Shown: positions 5,115-62,152, counted from the stretch's first letter. The stretch: DNA of 64,000 nucleotides from an uncultured candidate division Zixibacteria bacterium (GCA_903908285.1 CAIVRH010000029.1:102037-166036), one strand, 5' to 3'. A program made the numbers and translations. The notes: generated by a model not told the origin, from the letters alone.

Positions 5115-5657
5115 ATGAACGGGGCCATGTTTAACAGTTTGGCTCGGTATATAGACAAGAACTATCCACGGGTCTCTTTCTCCGATCTATGCCGGGAAGC
5201 ATCCCTGAAGACCAACGTGTTTGCCGAATTGACTTGGTATCCGGATAAAGATTTCATAAAAGTAATGGAGTTTCTCAGTGAACAGACCGAAACCGATCTT
5301 TCCACCCTTTGGAGGGATTTCGGCCGGGAGACTTTCCATTATTTTGCAGACATATTTGGTGATTACCTGCATGGGATTAAAACCTTTCCCAATCTGATAA
5401 CGAACCTGAATCGGATTCATCAACAGATAAAACGGGATGGATTGGGAACTCCTCCCCTGCTGGAGTTTAAGGAGGCTTCTCCCGATCATTTCGAGATAAG
5501 GTATACCTCCGACAGGAAGCTTTACGATTTCTTCCTGGGAATGCTGGAGGGAGCCACAAAATATTACAAAACAGATACAAAGATTCTGGGGAAAAAGGAG
5601 CGCGGCAAACTCATCGTCACCATAACCACCAAACAGCTGGAGCCAGAACTGGTTTAA
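5115..5657 (+). CDS. stand-alone H-NOX (haem nitric oxide/oxygen-binding) domain protein
   Basis: About 180 aa. Candidate proximal His (NRIHQQI), GTPPLL, and the Y-x-S-x-R haem-propionate motif (IRYTSDRKLYDFFLGMLEGATKYY) in the same spacing as characterised H-NOX proteins. AGGGGG RBS before the ATG at 5115. The annotated ORF start at 4995 is probably too long. Confidence 0.55.
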   Translation: MNGAMFNSLARYIDKNYPRVSFSDLCREASLKTNVFAELTWYPDKDFIKVMEFLSEQTETDLSTLWRDFGRETFHYFADIFGDYLHGIKTFPNLITNLNRIHQQIKRDGLGTPPLLEFKEASPDHFEIRYTSDRKLYDFFLGMLEGATKYYKTDTKILGKKERGKLIVTITTKQLEPELV

Positions 5658-7496: not shown

Positions 7497-7691
7497 ATAA
7501 TGAATTCAAATTTCAAAATTCAAGATTCAAAATTGCAATTCAAAATTCTAAATTACTCATTATATGATTGCAGAAACCGGTTTACCTGCACTTTGCTATT
7601 ATTACTCCCCTCACTAATCCCGCCACTGTCCTTTTCACCATCGAAGTTGTACCGAATTTGTATTGTGGGGGAAAGAGAGAATATGGGGTAG

Positions 7692-24967: not shown

Positions 24968-26635
24968 TTAGCCGCAGGGCACTGGTCCGCTTTTGAATAA
25001 ATAGTTGATCAGATAGACCACATCACCAATACTAATCAACCCATCGGAATTAGCGTCTCCCGCTATAAAAGGATTGGGGACGGGACCACTTTTAAAGAGA
25101 TAGTTAACCACATAGACCACATCCCCCACATCGATCACTTTATCCCCGTTAGCGTCTCCGCATAAATATTCGCTCCCTCCCAGAATCCCCCGGTCGTAAA
25201 CTGAAATCTCCGATGAGTCTTTAGTGCAGGCAAATCCGGCGGAGTCGTGCAGAAATGTGGTCCAGTTGGCGAGTTTTACGTTGTAGCTGCCAGAGGAATA
25301 ATCCGGGTTGGTTTGATCCGGATACCGGGCAATGGGAGTGAGTATGAATTTGGCTGAATACCATGACACCGCCACCGGATCGGTGGAACCTAAGAGCATT
25401 TTCGTATTTTGAACCCAGTTGAGATTATTTGGCCCGTAGGTGGTAGTCCAAGCCGCATCCACGATGCTGAGTCTGGGGAAAGTCGCAGCCATCACCCGTG
25501 CCACCAGGGCATAAGTTCCGAAGAAATAGGTGTTGTGCATGTTGGTCCAGTTTCCGAATCGCTCGGAGGAGTAGGCTGTGGTGAGCATTCCGATCCAGTT
25601 CTTGACCGCAATCGTTGCTCCCGCCAAGCTGTGGGCTTTTAAAACCGGGAAGTCTATTATGCACAACCGGGAATGATCATAGCTTGAAGAGAGAGAATCC
25701 CATACACCGTAACGCATGGAAATATAGTAATCACCGGAAGGAGAGCGGAACTTGGGATAAGTGATCTTGCTGGAACTTTCATAGACATATCCGTCATTAT
25801 AGTCTCCGGTGGAGTATTCGGTGGCAACAACATTCCAGATGTATTTCCAATCGAGATAATATACCGGATACCCTTTGGCACGAAAAGTGTTCACCACATC
25901 CGGGATGGACTGGGCGGTATCTTCCGAGTTGTTATCCTGCTGGTTGATTCCGGTTCCGATGTCCTGGGTATTGTCGCAAACGAGGATTTCACCGGAGAAA
26001 CCGTCGGGATGGTTTAGAATTCGCCAGATCAAACCCTTTACCCGGTCGGCACTGGTGGTGTTTCGTGAAGTCCACTGCCAGTTCCCCTTGATGATTACCA
26101 CGTTATCCGACCCGACAATCCCTTCGGGGTGGACAACTGTTTGATGCAGGTAAGTCCCCTTTTTCTCCATCATCAGAAGCAGGGTGTCGATGGCCGGATC
26201 GGGCAGATATGAGTCGGGCACGGAAGCATTGCCGGCAGCCAGTGATCCGGAGGTGGGGGGAATAGAGTCCAACACAAAAACGGTAGAAACCGGATCGGGA
26301 ACTTCCCAAACCGGAAGCGATGCCAAAGGTTTCACCTGGGATCTGCCAAATTCCGGTAATGCTGCCACAAACCATATAATTCCACCAAGTAGAATCGCGG
26401 CACCACAAAATTTGGCAAATCGACGAAAAAATAAGCTGCCCGCAAAGAACCCTGCCATCGCCAAAAACCAGCTGGCGGCGATGGGCATGGCTGCCCTTTG
26501 ACAGGGATAGGTTAGCCGCTTGGGATTGGTTCCGCTACGGAGCAGAACCCAAAGCAAAGCAACAAATCCGACCAGCCAAATCCAATAATGTTTGATATTG
26601 AAAGTGCGTTTATGTGAATGCATGGCAGACCTCAT
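24968..26635 (-). CDS. DUF362-domain protein with N-terminal transmembrane helices and a C-terminal double dockerin-like repeat
   Basis: IDFPVLKAHSLAGATIAVKNWIG resembles the DUF362 core. The C-terminus reads GDANGDKVIDVGDVVYVVNYLFKSGPVP...GDANSDGLISIGDVVYLINYLFKSGPVPCG, two EF-hand-like dockerin repeats. Confidence 0.55.
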   Translation of the reverse strand: MRSAMHSHKRTFNIKHYWIWLVGFVALLWVLLRSGTNPKRLTYPCQRAAMPIAASWFLAMAGFFAGSLFFRRFAKFCGAAILLGGIIWFVAALPEFGRSQVKPLASLPVWEVPDPVSTVFVLDSIPPTSGSLAAGNASVPDSYLPDPAIDTLLLMMEKKGTYLHQTVVHPEGIVGSDNVVIIKGNWQWTSRNTTSADRVKGLIWRILNHPDGFSGEILVCDNTQDIGTGINQQDNNSEDTAQSIPDVVNTFRAKGYPVYYLDWKYIWNVVATEYSTGDYNDGYVYESSSKITYPKFRSPSGDYYISMRYGVWDSLSSSYDHSRLCIIDFPVLKAHSLAGATIAVKNWIGMLTTAYSSERFGNWTNMHNTYFFGTYALVARVMAATFPRLSIVDAAWTTTYGPNNLNWVQNTKMLLGSTDPVAVSWYSAKFILTPIARYPDQTNPDYSSGSYNVKLANWTTFLHDSAGFACTKDSSEISVYDRGILGGSEYLCGDANGDKVIDVGDVVYVVNYLFKSGPVPNPFIAGDANSDGLISIGDVVYLINYLFKSGPVPCG

Positions 26636-29860: not shown

Positions 29861-30137
29861 GATATTATTTCCTTGTTTGTGCTATAGTGTCATGCTGAGC
29901 GTAGCGAAGCATCTGTCTTTCAATTCAAAATTTAATAAGAAAAGTGCAAAATTACAATTCAAAAATAAAAATTGTTTGCATTTGCAGATCAAGCTCCCGT
30001 AAAGTACCTGATAATTCATATTTTTTCCAATAACTCAATCTTGAATTTTAAACTGCAATTTTACATTTTGCTTTTTGAATTTTTAACATACCCCCTCATC
30101 CTATATCCTTCTCCCCAATGGGGAGAAGGAAATTCCA

Positions 30138-31862: not shown

Positions 31863-32158
31863 CCTCCTTTGGTGGATTTATTTATCGGATAATGTTTTAC
31901 CTCAAGTAGAAAGATCAAGAATCATACAATGGCCTATTGAAGGTTTGAGCCATATAGTTTTAAAAGGGCCGGGTAACTCTCCTATAAGCGGGGAGATCGT
32001 AATCCAATCCACGGTCTAATGTGACGAGATGGGCATAACCTCGTACCATCTGGTGCAGGGCGTAACGATGCATCCTGTTCTTCAATTCAAAATTTAATAA
32101 GAAAAGTGCAAAATTACAATTCAAAAATCAAAATATTCTGGTAGGAGGGGAAATTCAA

Positions 32159-39595: not shown

Positions 39596-41836
39596 GTGAA
39601 ACGTTTTCTATTTTTTTCTCTATTGGTGTCTTTTGTGTTATCTTTCTGGATCGGGGGTAGCGTCGCCCTTGCCCAAAATCTGAATGCACCTCAAAAAGAA
39701 ACGATCTACACCGACCAAAACACCACCCCCAGCCAATTTCACCAGATGGAAGCAGCCATGAAGCAACAGAGATTGAACGAAATCCGTAAGCTGGGAATTG
39801 CCTTCCCCTTAAAAGAGACTAAGAACCAGAGCGATTTTGATGCCCGGTACTACCGTTTGGATCTTAAACTCAATGACACCACCCAGATTCTGACCGGAGC
39901 AGTATATCTCTACGGAACAGCGTTGATCAACAGCTTCAATGTGGTGGAGCTGAATTTCTTCGATAATGCGCAGATGTATGTGGACTCATGCAAAAGCAAC
40001 AACGGGATTTTATCTTTCAATCGGGGCAGCAACATCCTTCGCATATTTCTGAATGGCACTTATAACTCCGGCCAGCCCTTTGGAGTAACCGTTTACTATC
40101 ACGGCCATCCCCTGGAGGGGGGGCTTCAGTCGTTCGATTGGAGCACCCACGGCAGCCCGTCTGTGCCGATCATCAGCACCTTGAGCGAGCCCTATTTTGC
40201 CCAATCCTGGTGGCCATGTAAAGATCTTCCCCGGGACAAGGCGGATTCGGTTGATATCAATGTGACTGTCCGCAGCGATTTATATGTGGCTTCCAACGGG
40301 CTTTTGAGGGAGATAGTCAACAACGGTTCCACCAAAACTTATAAATGGCACGAGAAGTATCCCATCGCCACCTATTTAGTCATGCTTGCCACAACCAATT
40401 ATTCCATCTTCTCCAACTGGTACCATAATCTGTCCGGCGACTCCATACCGGTGACCTATTACGTATACCCGGAATACTTGTCGCAGGCTCAATCCACTTA
40501 TCCGGTTACCCCATCCATGATCCGATTCTTTGCCGAAACATTCGGTGAATATCCCTGGGTGGAGGAAAAATACGGGATGGCTCATTTCACCTGGGGCGGG
40601 GCGATGGAGCATCAAACCTGCACCAGCATACTGTATAATTGGTATTCCGATTGGGTGATAGCCCACGAGCTGGCTCATCAGTGGTGGGGTGACTATATCA
40701 CCTGCCACAACTGGCATCATATCTGGCTGAATGAGGGATTTGCTTCCTATTGCGAAGCCCTGTGGGAGGAACATCTCGGGGGATCCAGCGGCTATCATTC
40801 CTACATGAACGGCATGCAATTCTTCAGTGGGGGAAGCATCTTCATACAGGATACTACAGATGCTAATGGCATCTTCGGCAACATAGTTTACGATAAAGGA
40901 GCGCAGGTTTTGCATATGCTCAGACATATCGTGGGCGACTCCACCTCCTTCCGGATTTTCAGAGATTTTTATTCCGATCCCCGCTATGCTAACGGGGTGG
41001 CAGAAACCGAGGATTTCCAGGGTATATGTGAAGCCGCTTCCGGCATGGATTTGAATTATTTCTTTCAGGAATGGATTTACGGAACCTACTATCCCAAATA
41101 TCAGTATTCCTTTATGACCGAACCGGCCGGCGGAGGAACGGCTACCGATGTTTACATCCATATCAATCAGACTCAGACCACCAATCCCACTTATTTCACC
41201 ATGCCGATAGATTTGAGGGTCACATCGTCAACCAAAGATACCATTGCAGTTGGTTTCAACGATCCGCGCCACAAAGATTTCAAGGTACGAGTACCCGGCA
41301 CCAATGTCAGTGTGAATTTAGATCCGAATGTCTGGATTTTAAGAACGGTCAGCTCCACCACTTATGGGATGAACATAGTCACCACTGATCTTGAGGCTGC
41401 ATCTCAGTTGTCCGCTTATGCGGAGACCTTAATGGCCAAGGGAGGCACCCTGCCATACAAGTGGAAATTGGACAGCGGAAATCTGCCGGATGGGCTTCAG
41501 CTGGATTCTTTAACCGGAGTAATATCCGGAGTTCCGACGGTAAAAGACAGCTTTGATTTTACGGTAAAGGTAACCGATTCCAGCGCACCGAACAAAACCG
41601 ATACCCAACCGCTTTATATCCTGGTGGGTGATAGTCCGTTCATCCGGGGAGATGTCAACCGCGACGGGTTGGTGGATATAGGTGATGTGATATACCTGAT
41701 CAGTAATCTGTATATTCACGGACCGGATCCTCTGCCCTACGCCGCAGGCGACGTCAATTGTGATGGCATAATTGAGGTGTCGGATATTATCTATCTGATC
41801 AATTATCTGTTTAAATCCGGTCCGGGACCCTGCTAA
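39596..41836 (+). CDS. secreted M1-family metallopeptidase with C-terminal Ig-like and double dockerin-like domains
   Basis: HELAHQWWGD plus WLNEGFASY. An Ig-like segment LPYKWKLDSGNLPDGLQLDSLTGVISG. The C-terminus GDVNRDGLVDIGDVIYLISNLY...GDVNCDGIIEVSDIIYLINYLFKSGPGPC is two dockerin-type Ca-binding repeats. Confidence 0.85.
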   Translation: MKRFLFFSLLVSFVLSFWIGGSVALAQNLNAPQKETIYTDQNTTPSQFHQMEAAMKQQRLNEIRKLGIAFPLKETKNQSDFDARYYRLDLKLNDTTQILTGAVYLYGTALINSFNVVELNFFDNAQMYVDSCKSNNGILSFNRGSNILRIFLNGTYNSGQPFGVTVYYHGHPLEGGLQSFDWSTHGSPSVPIISTLSEPYFAQSWWPCKDLPRDKADSVDINVTVRSDLYVASNGLLREIVNNGSTKTYKWHEKYPIATYLVMLATTNYSIFSNWYHNLSGDSIPVTYYVYPEYLSQAQSTYPVTPSMIRFFAETFGEYPWVEEKYGMAHFTWGGAMEHQTCTSILYNWYSDWVIAHELAHQWWGDYITCHNWHHIWLNEGFASYCEALWEEHLGGSSGYHSYMNGMQFFSGGSIFIQDTTDANGIFGNIVYDKGAQVLHMLRHIVGDSTSFRIFRDFYSDPRYANGVAETEDFQGICEAASGMDLNYFFQEWIYGTYYPKYQYSFMTEPAGGGTATDVYIHINQTQTTNPTYFTMPIDLRVTSSTKDTIAVGFNDPRHKDFKVRVPGTNVSVNLDPNVWILRTVSSTTYGMNIVTTDLEAASQLSAYAETLMAKGGTLPYKWKLDSGNLPDGLQLDSLTGVISGVPTVKDSFDFTVKVTDSSAPNKTDTQPLYILVGDSPFIRGDVNRDGLVDIGDVIYLISNLYIHGPDPLPYAAGDVNCDGIIEVSDIIYLINYLFKSGPGPC

Positions 41837-53256: not shown

Positions 53257-54303
53257 TTATCGGCTTCTTAAGAATTCCATCGCATTAATCAGATCTTCGC
53301 ATCCGAATCTGACCGGATCCACGGTGGGAAGCTCGGTTTCGTCTTCGATCCTCTCGATCTCCCTTCTGGCTTCGTCATCGCTTAAGTGAGAAGTGTTTAA
53401 AGATATTCCGATTACCTTGGAGGGTTTGACCGGTTTGGCGATTTCCTCGTGCAATTGGGCTAATTCGGAGAGTGACGGAATCTTCACCCGGTAGTTTTTT
53501 ATCCTTTCCCTTCCCGGGTAATGACACAAAACCATGGCATCGGGCAAGGAGCCATGGATCAAAGCCAGGGAGACTCCGGAATAACCCGGATGGATGATGG
53601 TCCCCTGTCCCTCCACGCAAAGTAAATCGTAATAGTTGGATTTCTCGATAAGGAATTCCTCGATGGCTCCGGACATGAAGTCGCCGATCACCGAATCGAT
53701 GGGCACTCCCTCTCCGGCGATCACTATCCCGGTTTGACCGGTAGCGATAAATAATGAATTCCATTCAAATTTCCGGGCTTGTCTTGCCAGCTCGAATGCC
53801 GTAACCATCTTTCCCGTTTTGCAGTCGGTGCCCACCGTCAGAATCACCTGGGATTTGATCAAGGATGGATCACCGGTGGAAACTTTATTGTATGGTTTTG
53901 ATTCGCGCAGGTCGTGTATTTTTACTCTCATCCGCAAAGCCAGAGCAGAGAGTTCGGGATCATCGTTCAACATGTCATGTAGTCCACTGATAATATCCAG
54001 TCCATTCTCCATGGCTTGTTTGATTACCTCTCTCCATTCCGAAGGAAGCTTCCCTCCTCTCGGAGCAATCCCGATCAAGAGCGCATTGGGTTGGATTTTC
54101 AGCGAATCCGCAATCTTTGCGACAATGGGGATCTCCCCTCCAAATCCCAATATCTGCTGAACGGTCTTACCTGCCTTGGTGGAATCCAGAATTGCCACTA
54201 CCTCTTCGGGTTTATACATGATCAAACCGGTGGCAGTTTTTGCTTCCAAACCACCGAAGTAACCTTCGGTCAAGATCACTATGCGTCGTTTTTTCTCGTG
54301 CAT
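53257..54303 (-). CDS. DUF1611-domain protein
   Basis: RIVILTEGYFGGLEAKTATGLIMYKPEEVVAILD...LLIGIAPRGGKLP..W...GLDIISGLH matches the DUF1611 family. Confidence 0.7.
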   Translation of the reverse strand: MHEKKRRIVILTEGYFGGLEAKTATGLIMYKPEEVVAILDSTKAGKTVQQILGFGGEIPIVAKIADSLKIQPNALLIGIAPRGGKLPSEWREVIKQAMENGLDIISGLHDMLNDDPELSALALRMRVKIHDLRESKPYNKVSTGDPSLIKSQVILTVGTDCKTGKMVTAFELARQARKFEWNSLFIATGQTGIVIAGEGVPIDSVIGDFMSGAIEEFLIEKSNYYDLLCVEGQGTIIHPGYSGVSLALIHGSLPDAMVLCHYPGRERIKNYRVKIPSLSELAQLHEEIAKPVKPSKVIGISLNTSHLSDDEARREIERIEDETELPTVDPVRFGCEDLINAMEFLRSR

Positions 54304-54326
54304 GGTTTTGATATATTTTGTTTTCC

Positions 54327-54425
54327 ACCCTCTCTCTGACTCTCCTCCACGGACGTGCCCGTATGGGCGTCAAGGGAGAGAGAATCTACCTACCTCCTCC
54401 CTTTACGGGAGTGGGGGAGGGTGAT
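54327..54425. repeat. composite element: family-1 arms enclosing a GC-rich family-2 palindrome
   Basis: ccctctctctgactctcctccacggacgtgcccgtatgggcgtcaagggagagaga...cctcctccctttacgggagtgggggagggtg. Confidence 0.6.
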
Positions 54426-54584
54426 GAAAAGTTCAAAATTCAAAGATTCAATTCAAAAATCAAAATTTGCAACCAGATTCTTTTCTTTCTAATCTTGAAT
54501 TTTGCATTGTAATTTTTCGTTTTGCTCTTTGAATTTTGAATTATACTAGATCTCGTTCTTTCTCTTCTCGATCAACCAAATCGT

Positions 54585-56261
54585 CTATTTCAAGAGAACC
54601 ATCTTTTTTGAAGATGTATACTCTCCTGTTTTCAACTGATAAAAATAAACTCCGCTAGACAATTGCACGCCTCTATCATTCATCCCATCCCATTTGACGG
54701 TGTAATCTCCCGCCCATTTGGATTCATCCACCAGAGTTCTCACCTTTTGACCAAGAAGATTATAGATTTTCAAGGTGGTGGGGATGGGAACTTTGATCTT
54801 TAAACCTTGAACTTTGAACTTTATTGTGGTATTGGGATTAAACGGATTCGGATAATTCTGGGAAAGAACAAATTCCGAAGGCTTACTTGAGCTTTCGGTT
54901 TCATCCTCCACCGCGCTTGGGTTTTGAATATACTTGAGGGTGACGCAATCCATTCCGGTACTGTTACCCAAGCTGCTTCCGGTCACATAGACATGGCCCG
55001 AATCGTCCACCGCTACAGCGCAGGCAGAGTCGGTGGCGATGGCCGGTCCGTCGTATCTGGCTACCCAGGCGGTATCTCCATTGGAAGTATACTTAATGGT
55101 GGCATAATCCTTGGAATTTCCACTGCCATAGCTATATCCAGTCACATACACGTTTCTGGAACTATCCACAGCTATGGCGAGTGCTTCATCTTCGCTGTTT
55201 CCCGGTCCATTGTATCTTCTCACCCAGGCAGTATCCCCGCTGGGAAGATATTTGATGGTGGCAAAGTCGTAGTTAGTCCCATAACCATAACTAAATCCGG
55301 TCACGTAGACATTGCCAGAACCGTCCACGGTAATAGCAGTAGCGTCATCGACTTGGTTATCCGGTCCATTGTATCTTCTCACCCAGGCAGTGTCCCCGTT
55401 GGGAAGATACTTGATGGTGGCGAAGTCGTTGCTGGTCCCGTTGCCATAGCTAAATCCGGTCACATAGACATTGCCCGAACCATCTACAACTATGGCGTTA
55501 GCTTCGTCCCACAGGTTTCCCGTTCCGTTGTATCTTCTTACCCAAGCTGTATCTCCATCCGACTCATACATTATGGTGGCATAGTCTACATCTGTTATAC
55601 TACCTTTGCTATATCCGGTCACATAAGAGTTACCGGAATTATCCACGACTATGGCGTAAGCCTTATCGGTTCCGTTTCCCGGCCCATTGTATCTTCTCAC
55701 CCACGCGGTATCTCCGTTAGGTTGATATTTAACGGTGGCATAATCCTCAACGGTTCCGCTGCCATTGCTGTATCCGGTCACATAGACATTGTCCGAATCG
55801 TCCACCGCTATGGCCTCTGCCAAATCGGTGGAAACAAGGCCGTATCTTCTCACCCAGGCGGTATCTCCGTTGAGATAGTACTTTATGGTGACATAGTCAT
55901 AGAGAGTCCCACTGTCGTAACTGCGCCCCGTTACATACACACGACCGGAATTATCGACAACCATAGCAGTAACCCGGTCCCAGTAGTTGTCTGGCCCGTT
56001 GTATGTCCGCACCCAGGCAGTGTCTCCGTTCGATTTATACTTTATGGTAAGGTAATCTTCGAACGTTCCACTGCCGGTAGTATAACCGGCGACGTAAACA
56101 TGTCCCGCATGACCTATGGCGATGGCAGAACCCGCATCCGAAGAGTCCATTACACCGTTGAACCTTCTTACCCAGGCGGTGTCTACGGACTGGGCGAACA
56201 CCGGCGCGACCCACGATACAAACAGTACCATCCAAAAAACCATCCTTAAAGGTTTGGGCAT
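54585..56261 (-). CDS. secreted SBBP beta-propeller-repeat protein with a T9SS C-terminal sorting domain (paralog 1)
   Basis: Signal peptide. About ten ~46-aa repeats (DTAWVRRYNGPGN...SGNVYVTGYS.GSGT.DYATIKY). The C-terminus LSQNYPNPFNP.TTIKFKV...IYNLLGQKVRTLV...SGVYFYQLK...KKMVLLK is a T9SS CTD. Confidence 0.75.
   Translation of the reverse strand: MPKPLRMVFWMVLFVSWVAPVFAQSVDTAWVRRFNGVMDSSDAGSAIAIGHAGHVYVAGYTTGSGTFEDYLTIKYKSNGDTAWVRTYNGPDNYWDRVTAMVVDNSGRVYVTGRSYDSGTLYDYVTIKYYLNGDTAWVRRYGLVSTDLAEAIAVDDSDNVYVTGYSNGSGTVEDYATVKYQPNGDTAWVRRYNGPGNGTDKAYAIVVDNSGNSYVTGYSKGSITDVDYATIMYESDGDTAWVRRYNGTGNLWDEANAIVVDGSGNVYVTGFSYGNGTSNDFATIKYLPNGDTAWVRRYNGPDNQVDDATAITVDGSGNVYVTGFSYGYGTNYDFATIKYLPSGDTAWVRRYNGPGNSEDEALAIAVDSSRNVYVTGYSYGSGNSKDYATIKYTSNGDTAWVARYDGPAIATDSACAVAVDDSGHVYVTGSSLGNSTGMDCVTLKYIQNPSAVEDETESSSKPSEFVLSQNYPNPFNPNTTIKFKVQGLKIKVPIPTTLKIYNLLGQKVRTLVDESKWAGDYTVKWDGMNDRGVQLSSGVYFYQLKTGEYTSSKKMVLLK
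54789..54822 (-). repeat. heptanucleotide tandem tract (4 units) inside the CTD of paralog 1
   Basis: The coding strand reads TTCAAAG TTCAAGG TTTAAAG ATCAAAG and encodes KFKVQGLKIKV. Confidence 0.7.
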
Positions 56262-56366
56262 GATACTAACTCCTTTTTTAACCTACTCTATTCAATTCTG
56301 TAGCGGTTCGATTCATCGAACCCGCCAGGTCGCATAAATGCCCAGACGGGCACGTCCGTGCGACCG

Positions 56367-56570
56367 CTACTTTAATAAAACCATCTTCTTCGCTGATACA
56401 TTCTCTCCAACTTTTAACTGATAAAAATAAACTCCGCTCGATAATGGCTCGCCTTTATCATTCTTTCCATCCCATTGGACAGCGTAGTTCCCAGCCAATT
56501 TGGGTTCATCCACCAACACCCTCACCACCTCCCCAAGAATGTTGTAGATTTTTAGGGTGGTGGGGACGGG
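56367..56570 (-). other. out-of-frame T9SS C-terminal sorting domain of paralog 2
   Basis: A complete CTD coding sequence directly downstream of the (TTCAAAG)2 tract, reached by a +2 / -1 shift. Confidence 0.65.
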
Positions 56571-58050
56571 AACTTTGAACTTTGAACTTTATTGTGGTGG
56601 CAGGATTAAATGGATTAGGATAATTCTGGGAGAGAGCAAATTCCGAAGGCTTTCTTGAGCTTTCGGTTTCGTCTTCTACAGCGCTGGGGCTTTGAAAATA
56701 CTTTATAGTGGCACAATCCTCGCTTGTCCCGTTACCTATACTGCTTCCGGTTACATAGACATTGCCCGAATCGTCCACCGCTACGGCACAGGCAGAATCG
56801 ATGGAGTTGACCGGTCCGTCATATCTGGCCACCCAGGAGGAATCTCCATTGGAATCATACTTTATGGTGGCATAATCCTTGGAAGTCCCACTGCCATAGC
56901 TATACCCGGTCACATAGACATTGCCGGAACCATCCAACGCTAATGCCCTAGCTTCATCATGGTTGTTTCCCGGTCCGATGTATCTTCTCAGCCAGAGAGT
57001 ATCTCCATTGGAAGCATACTTGATGGTGACATAATATGAGGCCACCCCTGACTCGTTGCTCAACCCGGTCACATAAACGTTGCCGGAACCGTCAACGGCT
57101 ATAGCATTAGCGTTATCGACTTGGTTATATGTTCCATTGTATCTTCTCACCCAGGCAGTATCCCCGTTGGGATGATACTTGATGGTGGCATAGTCGTTGT
57201 TTGTCGTCATGCCGACACTATACCCGGTCACATAAGCGAAACCCGAATCATCTACGGCTATGGCAGTAGCCACGTCCCCCATGAAGCCAGCTGGTCCGTT
57301 GTATCTTCTTACCCAGGCAGTATCTCCGTTAGGTTTATACTTTATGGTGGCATAGTCAAAGCCTGTTCCACTGCCAGTACTCCTTCCGGTCACATATACA
57401 TTTCCGGAGCCATCCACCGCTAGGGCGCGAGCCCAATCTTCACCGTTTCCCGGTCCATTGTATCTTCTCACCCAAGCGGTATCACCATTGGGATGATATT
57501 TTATGGTAGCATAGTCCATACCGGTCCCGCTACCGGTGCTGTAGCCGGTCACACAGACGTTGCCGGAATTGTCTACCACTATGGCACCTGCGTTATCATA
57601 GGAGCTTGGGTTGTATCTTCTCACCCAGGCAGTATCACCGTTGGGATAGTACTTTATAGTGACATAATCGGAGAGCGTCCCAGTACTTTGACTGTACCCA
57701 GTTACATACACCCGACCGGAATCATCGATAGCTATAGCGTTAGCCCGATCCCAGAGGTTGGCAGTCCCGTTGTAGGTTCGTACCCAGGCAGTGTCTCCGT
57801 TAGAGTCATACTTTATGGTGAGGTAGTCATCCTGAATTTCTACGCTGTCAATACAATAACCGGCGATGTAGACATGTCCAGAGTGATCTACGACGATGGC
57901 AGAACCACCATCCGAGGAGTTTGCCTTACCGTTGTATCTTTTCACCCAGGCAGTATCAACGGATGCACCGTGAACGGATTGGGCAAACTCCGGACCAACT
58001 AAAAACAGTAACAGCACTGCTGCTAAAATCATATTTAAAGCTTTTAACAT
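56506..58050 (-). CDS. SBBP beta-propeller-repeat protein with its T9SS CTD truncated by a frameshift in a heptanucleotide tract (paralog 2)
   Basis: Same repeat architecture. The ORF ends as ...TTIKFKVQSSRPHHPKNL... An intact CTD (PVPTTLKIYNILGEVVRVLVDEPKLAGNYAVQWDGKNDKGEPLSSGVYFYQLKVGENVSAKKMVLLK*) continues in the +2 frame down to 56367. Confidence 0.7.
   Translation of the reverse strand: MLKALNMILAAVLLLFLVGPEFAQSVHGASVDTAWVKRYNGKANSSDGGSAIVVDHSGHVYIAGYCIDSVEIQDDYLTIKYDSNGDTAWVRTYNGTANLWDRANAIAIDDSGRVYVTGYSQSTGTLSDYVTIKYYPNGDTAWVRRYNPSSYDNAGAIVVDNSGNVCVTGYSTGSGTGMDYATIKYHPNGDTAWVRRYNGPGNGEDWARALAVDGSGNVYVTGRSTGSGTGFDYATIKYKPNGDTAWVRRYNGPAGFMGDVATAIAVDDSGFAYVTGYSVGMTTNNDYATIKYHPNGDTAWVRRYNGTYNQVDNANAIAVDGSGNVYVTGLSNESGVASYYVTIKYASNGDTLWLRRYIGPGNNHDEARALALDGSGNVYVTGYSYGSGTSKDYATIKYDSNGDSSWVARYDGPVNSIDSACAVAVDDSGNVYVTGSSIGNGTSEDCATIKYFQSPSAVEDETESSRKPSEFALSQNYPNPFNPATTIKFKVQSSRPHHPKNLQHSWGGGEGVGG
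56571..56590 (-). repeat. heptanucleotide tandem tract (2 units) inside paralog 2, the frameshift site
   Basis: TTCAAAG TTCAAAG only. This is 14 nt shorter than in paralogs 1 and 3. Confidence 0.7.
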
Positions 58051-58367
58051 GATTTCCCTCCATGTTTTTTGATTATTTATCGCTATCCATCTTCATCCTT
58101 CTCCCGCTTGCAGTGAATCTGTCGAATCTTCCAAGGGGAAAGACGATGACAATGTATGATACAAAATGAAAAATGCAAGCAGACGCTTGCCCCCAGACGG
58201 GAGCGTCCGCTCGTCCGGGCAAAGATGCAGTTTTAGAATCAAAATTACTTTGAATTGTCTTTACTGAATCTTCAATTTTGAATTTTATACTGTGATTTTT
58301 CATTTTGCTCTTTGAATTTTGAATTGTATTTGACCTCCTTCTTTTTCAACTCCATTAAATTAAACGA

Positions 58368-60053
58368 CTATTTTAAGAGGACCATTTTCTTCGCCAAAGT
58401 ATTTTCTCCCACTTTCAATAGATAAAAATATACTCCGCTGGCTAATTGCTCGCCCTGATCATTCTTCCCATTCCACTGAACTGTATAGTCTCCAGCCCAT
58501 TTGGGTTCATCTACCAGAGTCCTTACCTTTTGACCAAGAAGGTTATAGATTCTTAAGGTGGTGTGGAGGGGAACTTTGAACCTTGAACCTTGAACCTTGA
58601 ACTTTATTGTAGTGGTCGGGTTGAACGGATTGGGGTAATTCTGGGAGAGAGAAAACTCCGATGGTTTTTCCGAACTTTCGACTTCATCTCCCACCCCGCT
58701 TGGATTCTTGACATACTTTATGGTGGTATAGTCCGTGTAGGTCAAACTATTATAGCTGGTTCCGGTTACGTAAACATTGCACGAATCATCGACAGCTAAT
58801 GCAGAAGCCGCGTCCGTATTGTTCGCCGGGCTGTTGTATCTTATCACCCAAGCAGTGTCCCCATTCGGATAATACTTTATGGTGGTATAGTCATCGCCTG
58901 TCTCACTGCCGCCGTAACTACGTCCGGTCACATAGATATTGTCAGAATCATCAACCGCTATGGCCCGAGCCCCGTCTTCGCCGTTTCCCGGTCCCTCGTA
59001 TATCCTCACCCATAGAGAATCCCCCTCGGAATTATACTTTATCGTGGCATAGCCGGTGTTGTCATCACCGGTGTAACTGCTTCCGGTTACGTAGACATTA
59101 TCCAAATGATCTAAAACCATAGCGTAGGCGTTATCAGTGGAGTTATACATTCCATTATATCTTCTCACCCAGGCAGTGTCTCCATTCGAATAATATTTGA
59201 TGATGGTATAATCGTTATCTGTTACGGCATCATAACTATATCCACACACATATACATTATTAGAGCCATCCAGGGCTATCGCACTGGGATAATCATCGAG
59301 ATTCCCCGGTCCGTTGTATCTTCTTACCCAGACCGTATCACCCTGTGGTGTATATCTGATGGTGGTAAAATCATAGCCTGTCCCGATCCCCTGGCTATAT
59401 CCGGTTACGTACACGTAGCCGGAATCGTCCACGGTCAGGGCAAAAGCCATATCATAAGAGTTGGCCGGTCCATTATATCTTCTCACCCAGACCGTGTCTC
59501 CGTTGGGATTATACTTGATGGTGGCATAGTCCCAATTTGTATCGCTGACTTTACTATTTCCGGTCACATAGACATAGTTGGAATCATCTACCGCTACGGC
59601 AATAGCATCATCATCCAAGTTCCCCGGTCCGTTGTATCTTTGAACCCAAGCAACATCTCCATTGGGAAGATACCTGATAGTAGCATAATCATAAGAAGTT
59701 CCAAGCCCGTAACTCGCTCCGGTCACGTAGACATTGCCGGAACCATCTACCGCTAGACCATTGGCCGCATCATCGAGGTTCCCCAGTCCATTATATCTTC
59801 TCACCCAGGCAGTATCCCCGTTGGAGTAATACTTGATGGTGGCATAGTCATAATCTGTGCCGCTGCCTTTGCTATATCCGGTCACATAAACATTACCTGA
59901 GCCATCTACGGCGGTGGCTGAAACATATTCTTCGTTATTTCCCGGTCCGTTGTATGTCCGCACCCAAGCGGTATCAACCGACTCGGCAAAGGTTGGACCG
60001 ACTAACAACAACAATAAAACCAGTCCCAAAACAACCTTTAGTGGTTTTAACAT
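58368..60053 (-). CDS. secreted SBBP beta-propeller-repeat protein with T9SS C-terminal sorting domain (paralog 3)
   Basis: Signal peptide, SBBP repeats, and an intact CTD (…TTIKFKVQGSRFKVPLHTTLRIYNLLGQKVRTLV…KKMVLLK). Confidence 0.75.
   Translation of the reverse strand: MLKPLKVVLGLVLLLLLVGPTFAESVDTAWVRTYNGPGNNEEYVSATAVDGSGNVYVTGYSKGSGTDYDYATIKYYSNGDTAWVRRYNGLGNLDDAANGLAVDGSGNVYVTGASYGLGTSYDYATIRYLPNGDVAWVQRYNGPGNLDDDAIAVAVDDSNYVYVTGNSKVSDTNWDYATIKYNPNGDTVWVRRYNGPANSYDMAFALTVDDSGYVYVTGYSQGIGTGYDFTTIRYTPQGDTVWVRRYNGPGNLDDYPSAIALDGSNNVYVCGYSYDAVTDNDYTIIKYYSNGDTAWVRRYNGMYNSTDNAYAMVLDHLDNVYVTGSSYTGDDNTGYATIKYNSEGDSLWVRIYEGPGNGEDGARAIAVDDSDNIYVTGRSYGGSETGDDYTTIKYYPNGDTAWVIRYNSPANNTDAASALAVDDSCNVYVTGTSYNSLTYTDYTTIKYVKNPSGVGDEVESSEKPSEFSLSQNYPNPFNPTTTIKFKVQGSRFKVPLHTTLRIYNLLGQKVRTLVDEPKWAGDYTVQWNGKNDQGEQLASGVYFYLLKVGENTLAKKMVLLK
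58572..58605 (-). repeat. heptanucleotide tandem tract (4 units) inside paralog 3
   Basis: TTCAAGG TTCAAGG TTCAAGG TTCAAAG. Confidence 0.7.
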
Positions 60054-60091: not shown

Positions 60092-60248
60092 CCCTCTCCC
60101 TTTATCCCTCTCCCACGGACGTGCCCCCAGACGGGAGCGCTGCGCGGGCACCGTCCGCTCGTCTGGGCATCGAGGGAGAGGGGAAATCAAAATCTCACCC
60201 CTGCCCTCTCTCCCTATTGAGGAGAGAGGGACCAAGGGGGAGAGGTTA
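60092..60248. repeat. composite family-1/family-2 element (two nested units)
   Basis: ccctctccctttatccctctcccacggacgtgcccccagacgggagcgctgcgcgggcaccgtccgctcgtctgggcatcgagggagagggg... ctcacccctgccctctctccctattgaggagagagggaccaagggggagaggtt. Confidence 0.65.
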
Positions 60249-61029: not shown

Positions 61030-61881
61030 CTAAAGCGGTTTTGCTGTGGACCGTGGACTATCGACCGTGGACGTTTTTCTCCTTAAGAAATAAACCACAT
61101 TTCCCCAAACGATTATAAGAACTATGACCAGATGACTCACCGACTGCGCATCCATCCCCTTTTGACCCATCCCCGGTTTTTCAAGCAGAATTTCGTATTC
61201 TGCCGCACCTTTCAGCCCGCCTAACAGCCCGACCATTTGACCGGAGGAGAGAAACGGATAGAAACTGGTGGCCATCACCGCAGTGGTGGCACAGGCGAAT
61301 TTAGGGTGATAGCGCGAGACCGCATAATCCACCCAGGTAACCGGCAGATCACCGTCCGCTACGGAAATTATCAATTTGACTTCGTTATAGTTTTTGATAT
61401 CCTTCATCATCGGAATCCGGTCCAAAGAAGTGTTATTGTAATCCTGCGGAAAAACTCTTTTTATCTCCTCTCCCATTCCCAAGATAGCCGACTGGGCTTG
61501 CGGTCTGTATCCCAAAAACACATAATCCTCCCCATAATTAGCCTGATATTCGTTAGCGGTTTCCCTTAAGAGCTGCTCTCCGATTGCGGTTCCCTCTGCC
61601 ATAAGCGCCAGGGTGATCACCTTGAGTTTTTTCTGAAAACAATGGCGCAATATTGCTTGAGCCATCGGCTTAACCTCAGGTAGAGACGAAGCCTCGTGGT
61701 CAAAGGAGATCATCATCACCGAACCGGAGTCCAATTGCTCGATGCTTTCATATACATTCCTCACCTCGGTGGTGACCTGGTTGGGCAGTCCGATTTTGAT
61801 CACCAGAGGAATGGCGACGGAAAGAGCGATTAAGACGAATATCAATTGTCGAGACAACATTCTAGGTAATTTAAAATTCAA
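61030..61881 (-). CDS. membrane-anchored hypothetical protein
   Basis: N-terminal transmembrane anchor, a ~230-aa soluble domain, and a C-terminal transmembrane helix. Confidence 0.45.
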   Translation of the reverse strand: MNFKLPRMLSRQLIFVLIALSVAIPLVIKIGLPNQVTTEVRNVYESIEQLDSGSVMMISFDHEASSLPEVKPMAQAILRHCFQKKLKVITLALMAEGTAIGEQLLRETANEYQANYGEDYVFLGYRPQAQSAILGMGEEIKRVFPQDYNNTSLDRIPMMKDIKNYNEVKLIISVADGDLPVTWVDYAVSRYHPKFACATTAVMATSFYPFLSSGQMVGLLGGLKGAAEYEILLEKPGMGQKGMDAQSVSHLVIVLIIVWGNVVYFLRRKTSTVDSPRSTAKPL

Positions 61882-62152
61882 AGTTAAAAATTAAAAATTG
61901 CAATTCAAAATCCAAAATTATTACTGTCTTATAAAGGTTCTCACAATTTAATTTTTGATTCTATCTTTTCTGTTCCCCCTAACTACCGCCTTTGGTGGTT
62001 CGACTTCCTTCGGCTTCGCCTCTGGATAAATCGCTCACCATCCTGAGCAAATCGAAGGACGGGATTTTCTACCTACCCTCTCCCCGATGGGGAGAGGGAA
62101 TGTATTTCATCAAATTTGAACCTTGGATTAAAATTTTGCAATCTGTATATGT

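Follow-up and report, generated by a model that had tools for sequence, protein, structure and literature searches.

We analysed a 64,000-nucleotide (nt) stretch of DNA from an uncultured candidate division Zixibacteria bacterium (GCA_903908285.1 CAIVRH010000029.1:102037-166036; hereafter the window, with positions counted from its first letter), and here report on three tandem paralogs, par1, par2 and par3, that encode SBBP beta-propeller proteins ending in the C-terminal sorting domain (CTD) of type IX secretion systems (T9SS). In the middle gene, par2, two units of a heptanucleotide repeat (14 nt) are missing from the CTD coding sequence and the reading frame is lost. In our judgement par2 probably represents a young loss-of-function frameshift that has been fixed in the species, rather than an on/off switch. 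The features on which the argument turns are the following.

par1: positions 54585-56261, minus strand; intact SBBP protein of 558 amino acids (aa) with a T9SS CTD, whose array at 54788-54822 encodes KFKVQGLKIKV.

par2: positions 56506-58050, minus strand; truncated open reading frame (ORF) of 514 aa with its stop codon TGA at 56506-56508.

par3: positions 58368-60053, minus strand; intact 561-aa SBBP protein with a T9SS CTD, whose array at 58571-58602 encodes KFKVQGSRFKV.

par2 heptamer tract: positions 56570-56590, minus strand; AAAGTTCAAAGTTCAAAGTTC, the site of the frameshift, with 3.0 copies and 100% matches in Tandem Repeats Finder.

par2 CTD remnant: positions 56367-56588, minus strand; +1 frame, opening just after a TAA (56589-56591) and ending with the TAG at 56367-56369.

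The three genes lie head-to-tail on the minus strand, and each encodes a Sec-type signal peptide. Profile searches with PF06739 (SBBP) returned multiple repeats over the gathering score in par1 (E = 2.8e-34), par2 (E = 1e-38) and par3 (E = 1.9e-37), and these repeats are visible in the DNA as a 159-nt period. The profile of the T9SS type A sorting domain (TIGR04183, cut-off of 23 bits) matched the C-terminal ends of par1 (33.6 bits) and par3 (29.7 bits), and the same searches gave no CTD match in the par2 ORF as it stands, in keeping with the preliminary description of this DNA, which had predicted a truncated par2 product without T9SS sorting domain. The par2 ORF is made up of the Sec signal peptide, the SBBP beta-propeller, a linker, the first CTD strand (NYPNPFNPATTIKF) and a 23-residue out-of-frame tail (...KFKVQSSRPHHPK).

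Period-7 arrays of a TTCAARG unit occupy the first loop of the T9SS CTD in all three paralogs. With a period of 7, Tandem Repeats Finder reported 5.0 degenerate copies (78% matches) in par1, 4.6 copies (96% matches) in par3 and 3.0 perfect copies (21 nt) in par2, the latter corresponding to two full TTCAAAG units plus shared flanks. These arrays are not a chance feature, because GTTCAARGTTCAAR (with at most one mismatch) occurs 7 times in the window compared to 0.13 occurrences expected. The par2 tract is 14 nt, or two units, shorter than in paralogs and orthologs, and alignment of the 3' ends of the three paralogs revealed a single gap, 14 nt long, located in par2 and exactly inside the array, the remaining columns being 86% identical. 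The alignment and the repeat search thus agree with the preliminary description, which had recognised the three tandem paralogs with a 7-nt repeat in the sorting domain and the two-unit difference in par2, and had named the loss of two heptamer units as the cause of the frameshift. The par2 ORF ends with ...KFKVQSSRPHHPKNLQHSWGGGEGVGG, and after the gap its frame gives SSRPHHPKNLQHSWGGGEGVGG and stops at 56506. When par2 was rebuilt in silico with zero to seven units, only the versions with 1, 4 or 7 units were in frame, as the earlier argument from a unit length that is not a multiple of 3 had implied, and the four-unit version would encode 565 aa.

The two-unit allele is fixed in all available assemblies of the species. 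At least seven contigs from several ENA assemblies encode exactly this 514-aa product (the source samples comprise ENA assemblies ERZ27313154, ERZ27313106, ERZ27313159, ERZ18628054, ERZ18628513 and ERZ1426824 and biosamples SAMEA6872788 and SAMEA6872790), and par2 DNA with an identical 2-unit tract is present in loci L001-L003 and L006-L008. Two of these come from strains that are distinct by single-nucleotide polymorphisms (SNPs): against the window, L007 has 6 SNPs in par2 and 7 in par3 (98.7% identity over 4.4 kb), L008 has 2 and 7, respectively, and both keep the 2-unit tract. The arrays of par1 and par3 are identical in all strains of the species, including the purer array of par3 in L007 and L008. 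No in-frame par2 allele of this species was found in a collection of 15 billion proteins, and the 90% cluster of par2 comprises four members, three of them frameshifted and from this species (514, 514 and 508 aa) and the fourth a 565-aa protein, P0121, that we discuss below. Counting heptamer units in a population sample had been put forward earlier as a way to uncover length heterogeneity; at the level of assemblies, every contig of the species carries two units, those of the SNP-distinct strains included. In one of these strains (L007) we also observed 4 SNPs within 8 nt (window 57200-57207, par2 codons 282-284), which change TTN to LSS and look like a short gene-conversion tract rather than independent mutations.

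An assembly or sequencing artefact had been listed among the alternatives, in which case the real genome would have four units, and tandem repeats together with paralogous CTDs can indeed mislead assemblers, all the more as contig breaks occur nearby (58324 and 56511). The identical 2-unit tract, however, recurs in at least seven contigs from several samples and SNP-distinct strains, and the record names of L002, L003, L007 and L008 follow two formats (k141_ and scaffold_), which may stand for two assemblers. Moreover, the flanks of the tract are par2-specific, so a chimera between paralogs is not at hand, and the contig ends do not coincide with the tract. An error of this kind is thereby ruled out for practical purposes, and we hold it to be extremely improbable.

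As to the contig ends, L007 and L008 terminate at 56511, inside the out-of-frame CTD remnant and 59 nt from the tract, and L002 and L003 start at 58324, in an AT-rich intergenic array upstream of par2 and ~1.7 kb from the tract. That differently named pairs of contigs break at the same positions suggests either that strains differ in structure here or that the same reads were assembled more than once. We considered these ends as a sign of heterogeneity in the tract and rejected them as such, since distances of 59 nt and ~1.7 kb place the variation elsewhere.

The ancestor of par2 had four units. The contigs of JGI metagenomes and the species genomes of GTDB were each scanned once with an exact pattern for CTDs that begin with PFNPxxxIKFKV plus the first unit, which yielded 13 loci, and further loci were reached through proteins; P0121 and P0040 were compared as proteins only. 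The syntenic ortholog of par2 (L005 gene 1, followed by the par1 ortholog P0049) has near-identical flanks and four units in frame, and par2 aligns to it with the 14-nt gap. P0121, from a ~90% identical organism in another JGI sample (3300075153), contains KFKVQGSKFKV and a full CTD, and its 565 aa are the length predicted for a four-unit par2. Four units in frame were likewise found in P0017 (82% identical, at the syntenic locus L004), P0040, P0049, P0055, L010-L014, L016 and L020-L022. Since L005 gene 1, P0121 and the other relatives all have four units, the two-unit state of par2 is derived and arose by deletion.

The number of units is stable among the relatives. All 15 in-frame relatives that could be read as DNA (scan loci and loci reached through proteins) have four units, and the distance from NYPNPF to the stop codon is exactly 273 nt in 13 of them; the fourteenth (L014) is likewise in frame and shares both the array and the CTD core of 189 nt, and in the fifteenth (L004 gene 1) the four-unit array is shared as well and a 57-nt insertion comes after it. 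The same four-unit peptide is present in the four relatives known only as proteins. The exceptions are par2 itself (two units, out of frame), L015 (two units, out of frame) and L017, which belongs to another CTD family and has one unit in frame. A comparison of orthologous loci, proposed earlier as a means of finding other copy numbers, therefore turned up a constant number instead of variation.

Two homologs without CTD, P0078 and P0113, were examined as possible frameshifts and rejected, as both end in dockerin domains. A census of frameshifted alleles with synthetic out-of-frame tails retrieved only small ORFs of (GTTCAAR)n satellites and missed the par2 product itself, so that it is uninformative on recurrence. 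At the site syntenic to window positions 53257-60053, L004 (JGI 3300037878) has only two paralogs. The second of these, P0017, combines a par2-like N-terminus with a par1-like CTD, the CTD of P0121 is also P0017-like, and P0040 has a par1-like N-terminus, yet is 75% identical to par2 overall; a mosaic family of this kind implies recombination or gene conversion between paralogs.

Beyond the tract, the +1 frame of par2 reads PVPTTLKIYNILGEVV...KKMVLLK* down to 56367 and is not joined to the par2 ORF; it encodes the remainder of the T9SS type A sorting domain (SSKFKVPVPTTLKIYN...KKMVLLK*), and the peptide within the par2 CTD frame runs VPVPTTLKIYNILGEVVR.... Alone, the remnant scored 30.7 bits with TIGR04183 (E = 2.3e-7), above the curated cut-off of 23 bits, and it was also matched by PF13860 and PF13585, so that the complete CTD that had been read in the other frame down to 56367 is indeed there. 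It contains neither stop codon nor indel, and the 189 nt from LKIY to the stop equal the length in all relatives. Compared to the closest relative for which DNA is available (L005 gene 1, synonymous divergence (dS) of 0.63), the ratio of nonsynonymous to synonymous divergence (dN/dS) of the remnant is 0.12, equal to that of in-frame pairs; the remnant must thus have been under selection for almost its entire history, and the frameshift is recent. The changes specific to its lineage (4 synonymous and 4 nonsynonymous, too few to detect relaxed selection) are like those of other genes.

The strains that share the frameshift diverge by at most 0.4% in these genes, and hence about one substitution or fewer is expected in a remnant of ~200 nt, which means that its intactness is no evidence of selection. 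Going by the sequence comparisons, the frameshift is recent relative to the divergence at dS 0.63, and the remnant does not separate a recent pseudogene from a sequence that is still selected. The earlier argument that the intact CTD frame speaks against an old pseudogene thus holds insofar as the event is recent (dN/dS of 0.12), and does not extend to selection on the remnant (at most 0.4% divergence).

The position of the remnant brings up programmed +1 ribosomal frameshifting within the array, for example by slippage of Lys-tRNA from AAA to AAG at AAA-G, which would give ...TTIKFKFKVPVPTTLKIYN.... Immediately in front of the array, past the TAA at 56589-56591, the +1 frame becomes open, and a shift anywhere in the array would lead into the complete CTD. 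On the other hand, the frameshift is not conserved, as every ortholog and paralog is in frame; on reading the sequence, the site has no stop codon, no obviously rare codon and no upstream Shine-Dalgarno-like stimulator, and a scan of the whole window against Rfam gave no matches, which also counts against recoding. We consider this mechanism very improbable.

Fixation of the allele could alternatively reflect selection for the truncation itself, if a CTD-less propeller that is periplasmic or retained were useful and the frameshift had fixed a new localisation. The allele is fixed across strains, the par2 body is without stop codon or indel and has a good ribosome-binding site in front of it (GGAGG, with 6 nt to the ATG), and SBBP proteins with other C-termini do occur, such as the dockerin domains of P0078 and P0113. 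Yet the event is too young for selection and drift to be told apart (within the species, the codon changes in par2 number 1 synonymous and 4 nonsynonymous, too few to test selection on the body), and no relative has a comparable CTD-less form, the close homologs all keeping their CTD. Selected truncation is in our view quite unlikely.

A young, fixed loss of function would have come about as follows. Ancestral par2 carried the four-unit array encoding KFKVQGSKFKV, as in its relatives, and a single event of slipped-strand mispairing or direct-repeat deletion in the ancestor of the sampled strains probably removed two 7-nt units (14 nt), so that translation leaves the frame once the first beta-strand of the T9SS sorting domain has been read. 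T9SS cargo is reported to require both the Sec signal and the CTD to cross the outer membrane (PMC12618676). At most, par2 would then yield a Sec-exported propeller without sorting domain that is neither passed across the outer membrane by T9SS nor anchored there, and the truncated product would presumably be periplasmic or degraded. The loss of par2 could be tolerated because two intact paralogs flank it, and the downstream CTD would still be perfect because too little time has elapsed for its decay.

This is not how the preliminary description had interpreted the locus: it had proposed a phase-variable switch that toggles export by gain and loss of heptamer units. Cast as a slow contingency switch, that proposal would have a slippage-prone array in which par2 is OFF and can revert through loss of one unit or gain of two, so that T9SS export is toggled in subpopulations. 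Several observations fit it and weigh against a simple fixed loss. The remaining tract just reaches a permissive threshold for simple sequence repeats (SSRs), namely at least 3 copies of a heptamer (PMC2651432), but falls far short of the 13-53 units of proven cases. A tract one unit shorter would be back in frame, and its loop length is one that other CTDs tolerate (L017). Consensus assemblies are blind to minority alleles such as revertants, and the assemblies may share a project or reads, in that L002 and L003 have a common end point, as do L007 and L008. L015, an unrelated small CTD gene, provides a second out-of-frame allele with two units; as an independent OFF allele we rejected it, because it has a second frameshift outside any repeat, is only ~150 codons long and looks like a decaying gene.

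The array is also better conserved at the nucleotide level than its surroundings, which belongs with these objections. Across 13 in-frame loci, the same-codon fraction, i.e. the share of sequence pairs in which an identical amino acid is written with an identical codon, was 0.85 in the array plus PVPTT compared to 0.53 in the remainder of the CTD (permutation p < 1e-4), and with only the five loci found via proteins the values were 0.93 and 0.67 (p = 0.007). The observation concerns the arrays of par1 and par3 and loci L004, L005, L010-L014, L016 and L020-L022. Within the array Val is encoded by GTT (23/23), Ser by TCA (12/12) and Phe by TTC (22/23), while the rest of the domain mostly uses other codons for them. 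L010, L011 and L014, furthermore, have the same position of the unit altered in three units at once (TTCAAAA/TTCAAGA for TTCAAGG/TTCAAAG), a concerted change that hints at maintenance or turnover of the repeat itself. Units 2-4 end in A in these three loci and in G in L012, L013 and L020, and the peptide reads QNSRFKI instead of QGSKFKV. Synonymous conservation and concerted change together suggest, from the sequence comparisons, either a nucleotide-level constraint or turnover and homogenisation of the units.

Other CTD genes carry heptamers of other kinds. A second type of CTD in the same genomes (L009 1946-1974, protein P0027, and the second CTD gene of L020, whose CTD ends at 5287) has 4.1 copies of CACCGTC at the same loop position, and a duplicated loop with a further array of 3.3 copies of GTTCAYR was found in L004 gene 1 (2877-2899) and in the upstream gene of L009 (65-87).

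In favour of the slow switch one may thus list a unit whose length is not a multiple of 3, the intact CTD in the other frame, the synonymous conservation of the array, the concerted units, the second heptamer type in L009 and L020, the two-unit allele of L015, and precedents for coding heptamers in other bacteria. Against it stand the absence of copy-number variation wherever we looked (two units in all strains of the species, four in all in-frame relatives, invariant arrays in par1 and par3), the apparent decay of L015 and the length of the tract, with 3.0 copies compared to roughly 10-50 in proven heptamer switches. The assemblies, the relatives and the arrays of the two paralogs thus give the earlier claim of a toggling switch no backing; below the level of consensus assemblies switching is probably also lacking, and we regard the slow switch as unlikely.

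Several known systems can be compared. In the opa genes of Neisseria, a pentamer (CTCTT) lies in the region coding for the signal peptide, in long hypermutable tracts whose ON and OFF states are known to coexist in every population. Akin to opa, a repeat in the part of par2 that encodes an export signal would decide on the production of a surface protein, but par2 lacks the long, hypermutable and mixed tracts. The O-acetyltransferase gene neuO of Escherichia coli K1, carried by phage CUS-3, is phase-variable through a heptanucleotide (AAGACTC) in its 5' coding region, with unit numbers from 3 to 53 in 64 genomes (66% of these OFF) and with a mixture of unit numbers measurable in a single culture (PMC13001214). 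It resembles par2 in having a 7-nt tandem repeat in the coding sequence that allows the full length only at certain unit numbers, and differs in that its repeat is variable and near the N-terminus, whereas the par2 tract lies in a C-terminal secretion signal, is short and is fixed (at two units, with four in relatives). In Haemophilus influenzae, an intragenic (AATTTTG)14 frameshift was described in hmw1a, and 7-bp repeats are present in the promoters of hmw1a and hmw2a (PMC2651432); here too a heptamer SSR is found at a gene for an adhesin-like surface protein and altered repeat length is given as the cause of a frameshift, but hmw tracts have 13-38 copies and vary between strains (PMC2651432), while the 3 copies of par2 are strain-invariant. 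A further likeness is to ordinary pseudogenes that arise by slippage or direct-repeat deletion in redundant families, with a single fixed indel, functional paralogs adjoining and the rest of the gene undecayed: nothing essential differs, and the only oddity is that the repeat is deeply conserved in this CTD family.

Heptamer arrays also occur between genes. Cyanobacterial short tandemly repeated repetitive (STRR) sequences are intergenic heptamer repeats. Intergenic direct repeats of the heptamer TAACTGA have been reported in Beggiatoaceae, Cyanobacteria and Bacteroidetes (PMC4679880). In the window, short AT-rich arrays of one heptamer (AATTCAA type) similarly recur in intergenic positions (54428-54542, 58265-58329, 7503-7554, 61868-61917, 29924-30086 and 32086-32133), with the difference that TAACTGA and STRR arrays are non-coding, while here a related unit is also found in frame within a protein domain. 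One of the intergenic arrays forms an additional feature.

AT-rich inverted repeat: positions 54428-54542, no strand assigned; 3' region of par1, AATTCAA-type heptamers with 35-nt arms.

The predicted hairpin of this inverted repeat has a free energy of -27.2 kcal/mol (z = -2.1), and the complementarity of its distal arm to the par1 and par2 coding arrays is 83-94%. RNA pairing between coding array and an arm in the 3' untranslated region (UTR) was rejected as a general mechanism, as the arrangement is confined to par1, with no counterpart downstream of par3 (z = +0.8) or par2. A broader reading is that the array is a functional element at the nucleotide level (a slow export switch, or a binding or pairing site akin to the AATTCAA-type arrays), with par2 as one OFF state. 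It is motivated by the synonymous conservation, the concerted change, the second, unrelated heptamer in the same loop, the two independent out-of-frame alleles and the complementarity of the 3' UTR arm, and we accord it a minor chance.

Other repeats and genes were noted around the locus and in the sequences collected. An element (AATTCAAAATTCAAAGAGCAAAA.GAAAAAT.ACA) is located downstream of both par1 and par3, and behind par1 it makes up the inverted repeat described above. A GC-rich repeat (...CACGGACGTGCCCGTCTGGGC...) flanks the paralogs in both orientations (54340-54372, 56340-56366, 58188-58217 and 60111-60139). Elsewhere the unit of the short intergenic arrays builds long satellites, such as (GTTCAAG)27.3 in a large stretch between genes on an unrelated contig (L023 3162-3352, JGI Ga0326727_10001479), with related contigs diverging or ending just after it, and many short "hypothetical proteins" in public collections (P0124-P0156) are translated heptamer arrays of this satellite kind. 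Elsewhere in the window, 24968-26635 and 39596-41836 encode predicted proteins (one with DUF362, one with an M1 peptidase and He_PIG) that end in dockerin type I domains and not in a T9SS CTD.

The GyrA protein encoded within the window shares 77-89% identity with proteins that carry the name Candidatus Zixiibacteriota, which identifies the organism as a member of the Zixibacteria. Zixibacteria are members of the Fibrobacteres-Chlorobi-Bacteroidetes (FCB) group. One review places T9SS in the FCB superphylum (PMC12398890), while the abstracts of other papers describe it as restricted to Bacteroidetes. Among the genes of the T9SS machinery, PorK/L/M/N, SprA and PorU/V are absent from the 64-kb window.

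Taken together, the phenomenon is known in kind, a frameshift pseudogene at a short tandem repeat, and new in its place. As a slippage frameshift that inactivates one copy of a redundant family it would be an ordinary event, and its main use lies in annotation, where par2 needs a frameshift flag and the CTD remnant ought not to be listed as a gene. We know of no description of a secretion signal that varies in phase through simple sequence repeats, be it in T9SS cargo or in Zixibacteria, and the finding would matter more if switching were seen in reads or if the array turned out to act as a functional element at the nucleotide level. An array whose synonymous sites are kept across deeply diverged genomes, and which resembles arrays found between genes of the same genome, could be the mark of a regulatory or mutational feature not yet recognised.

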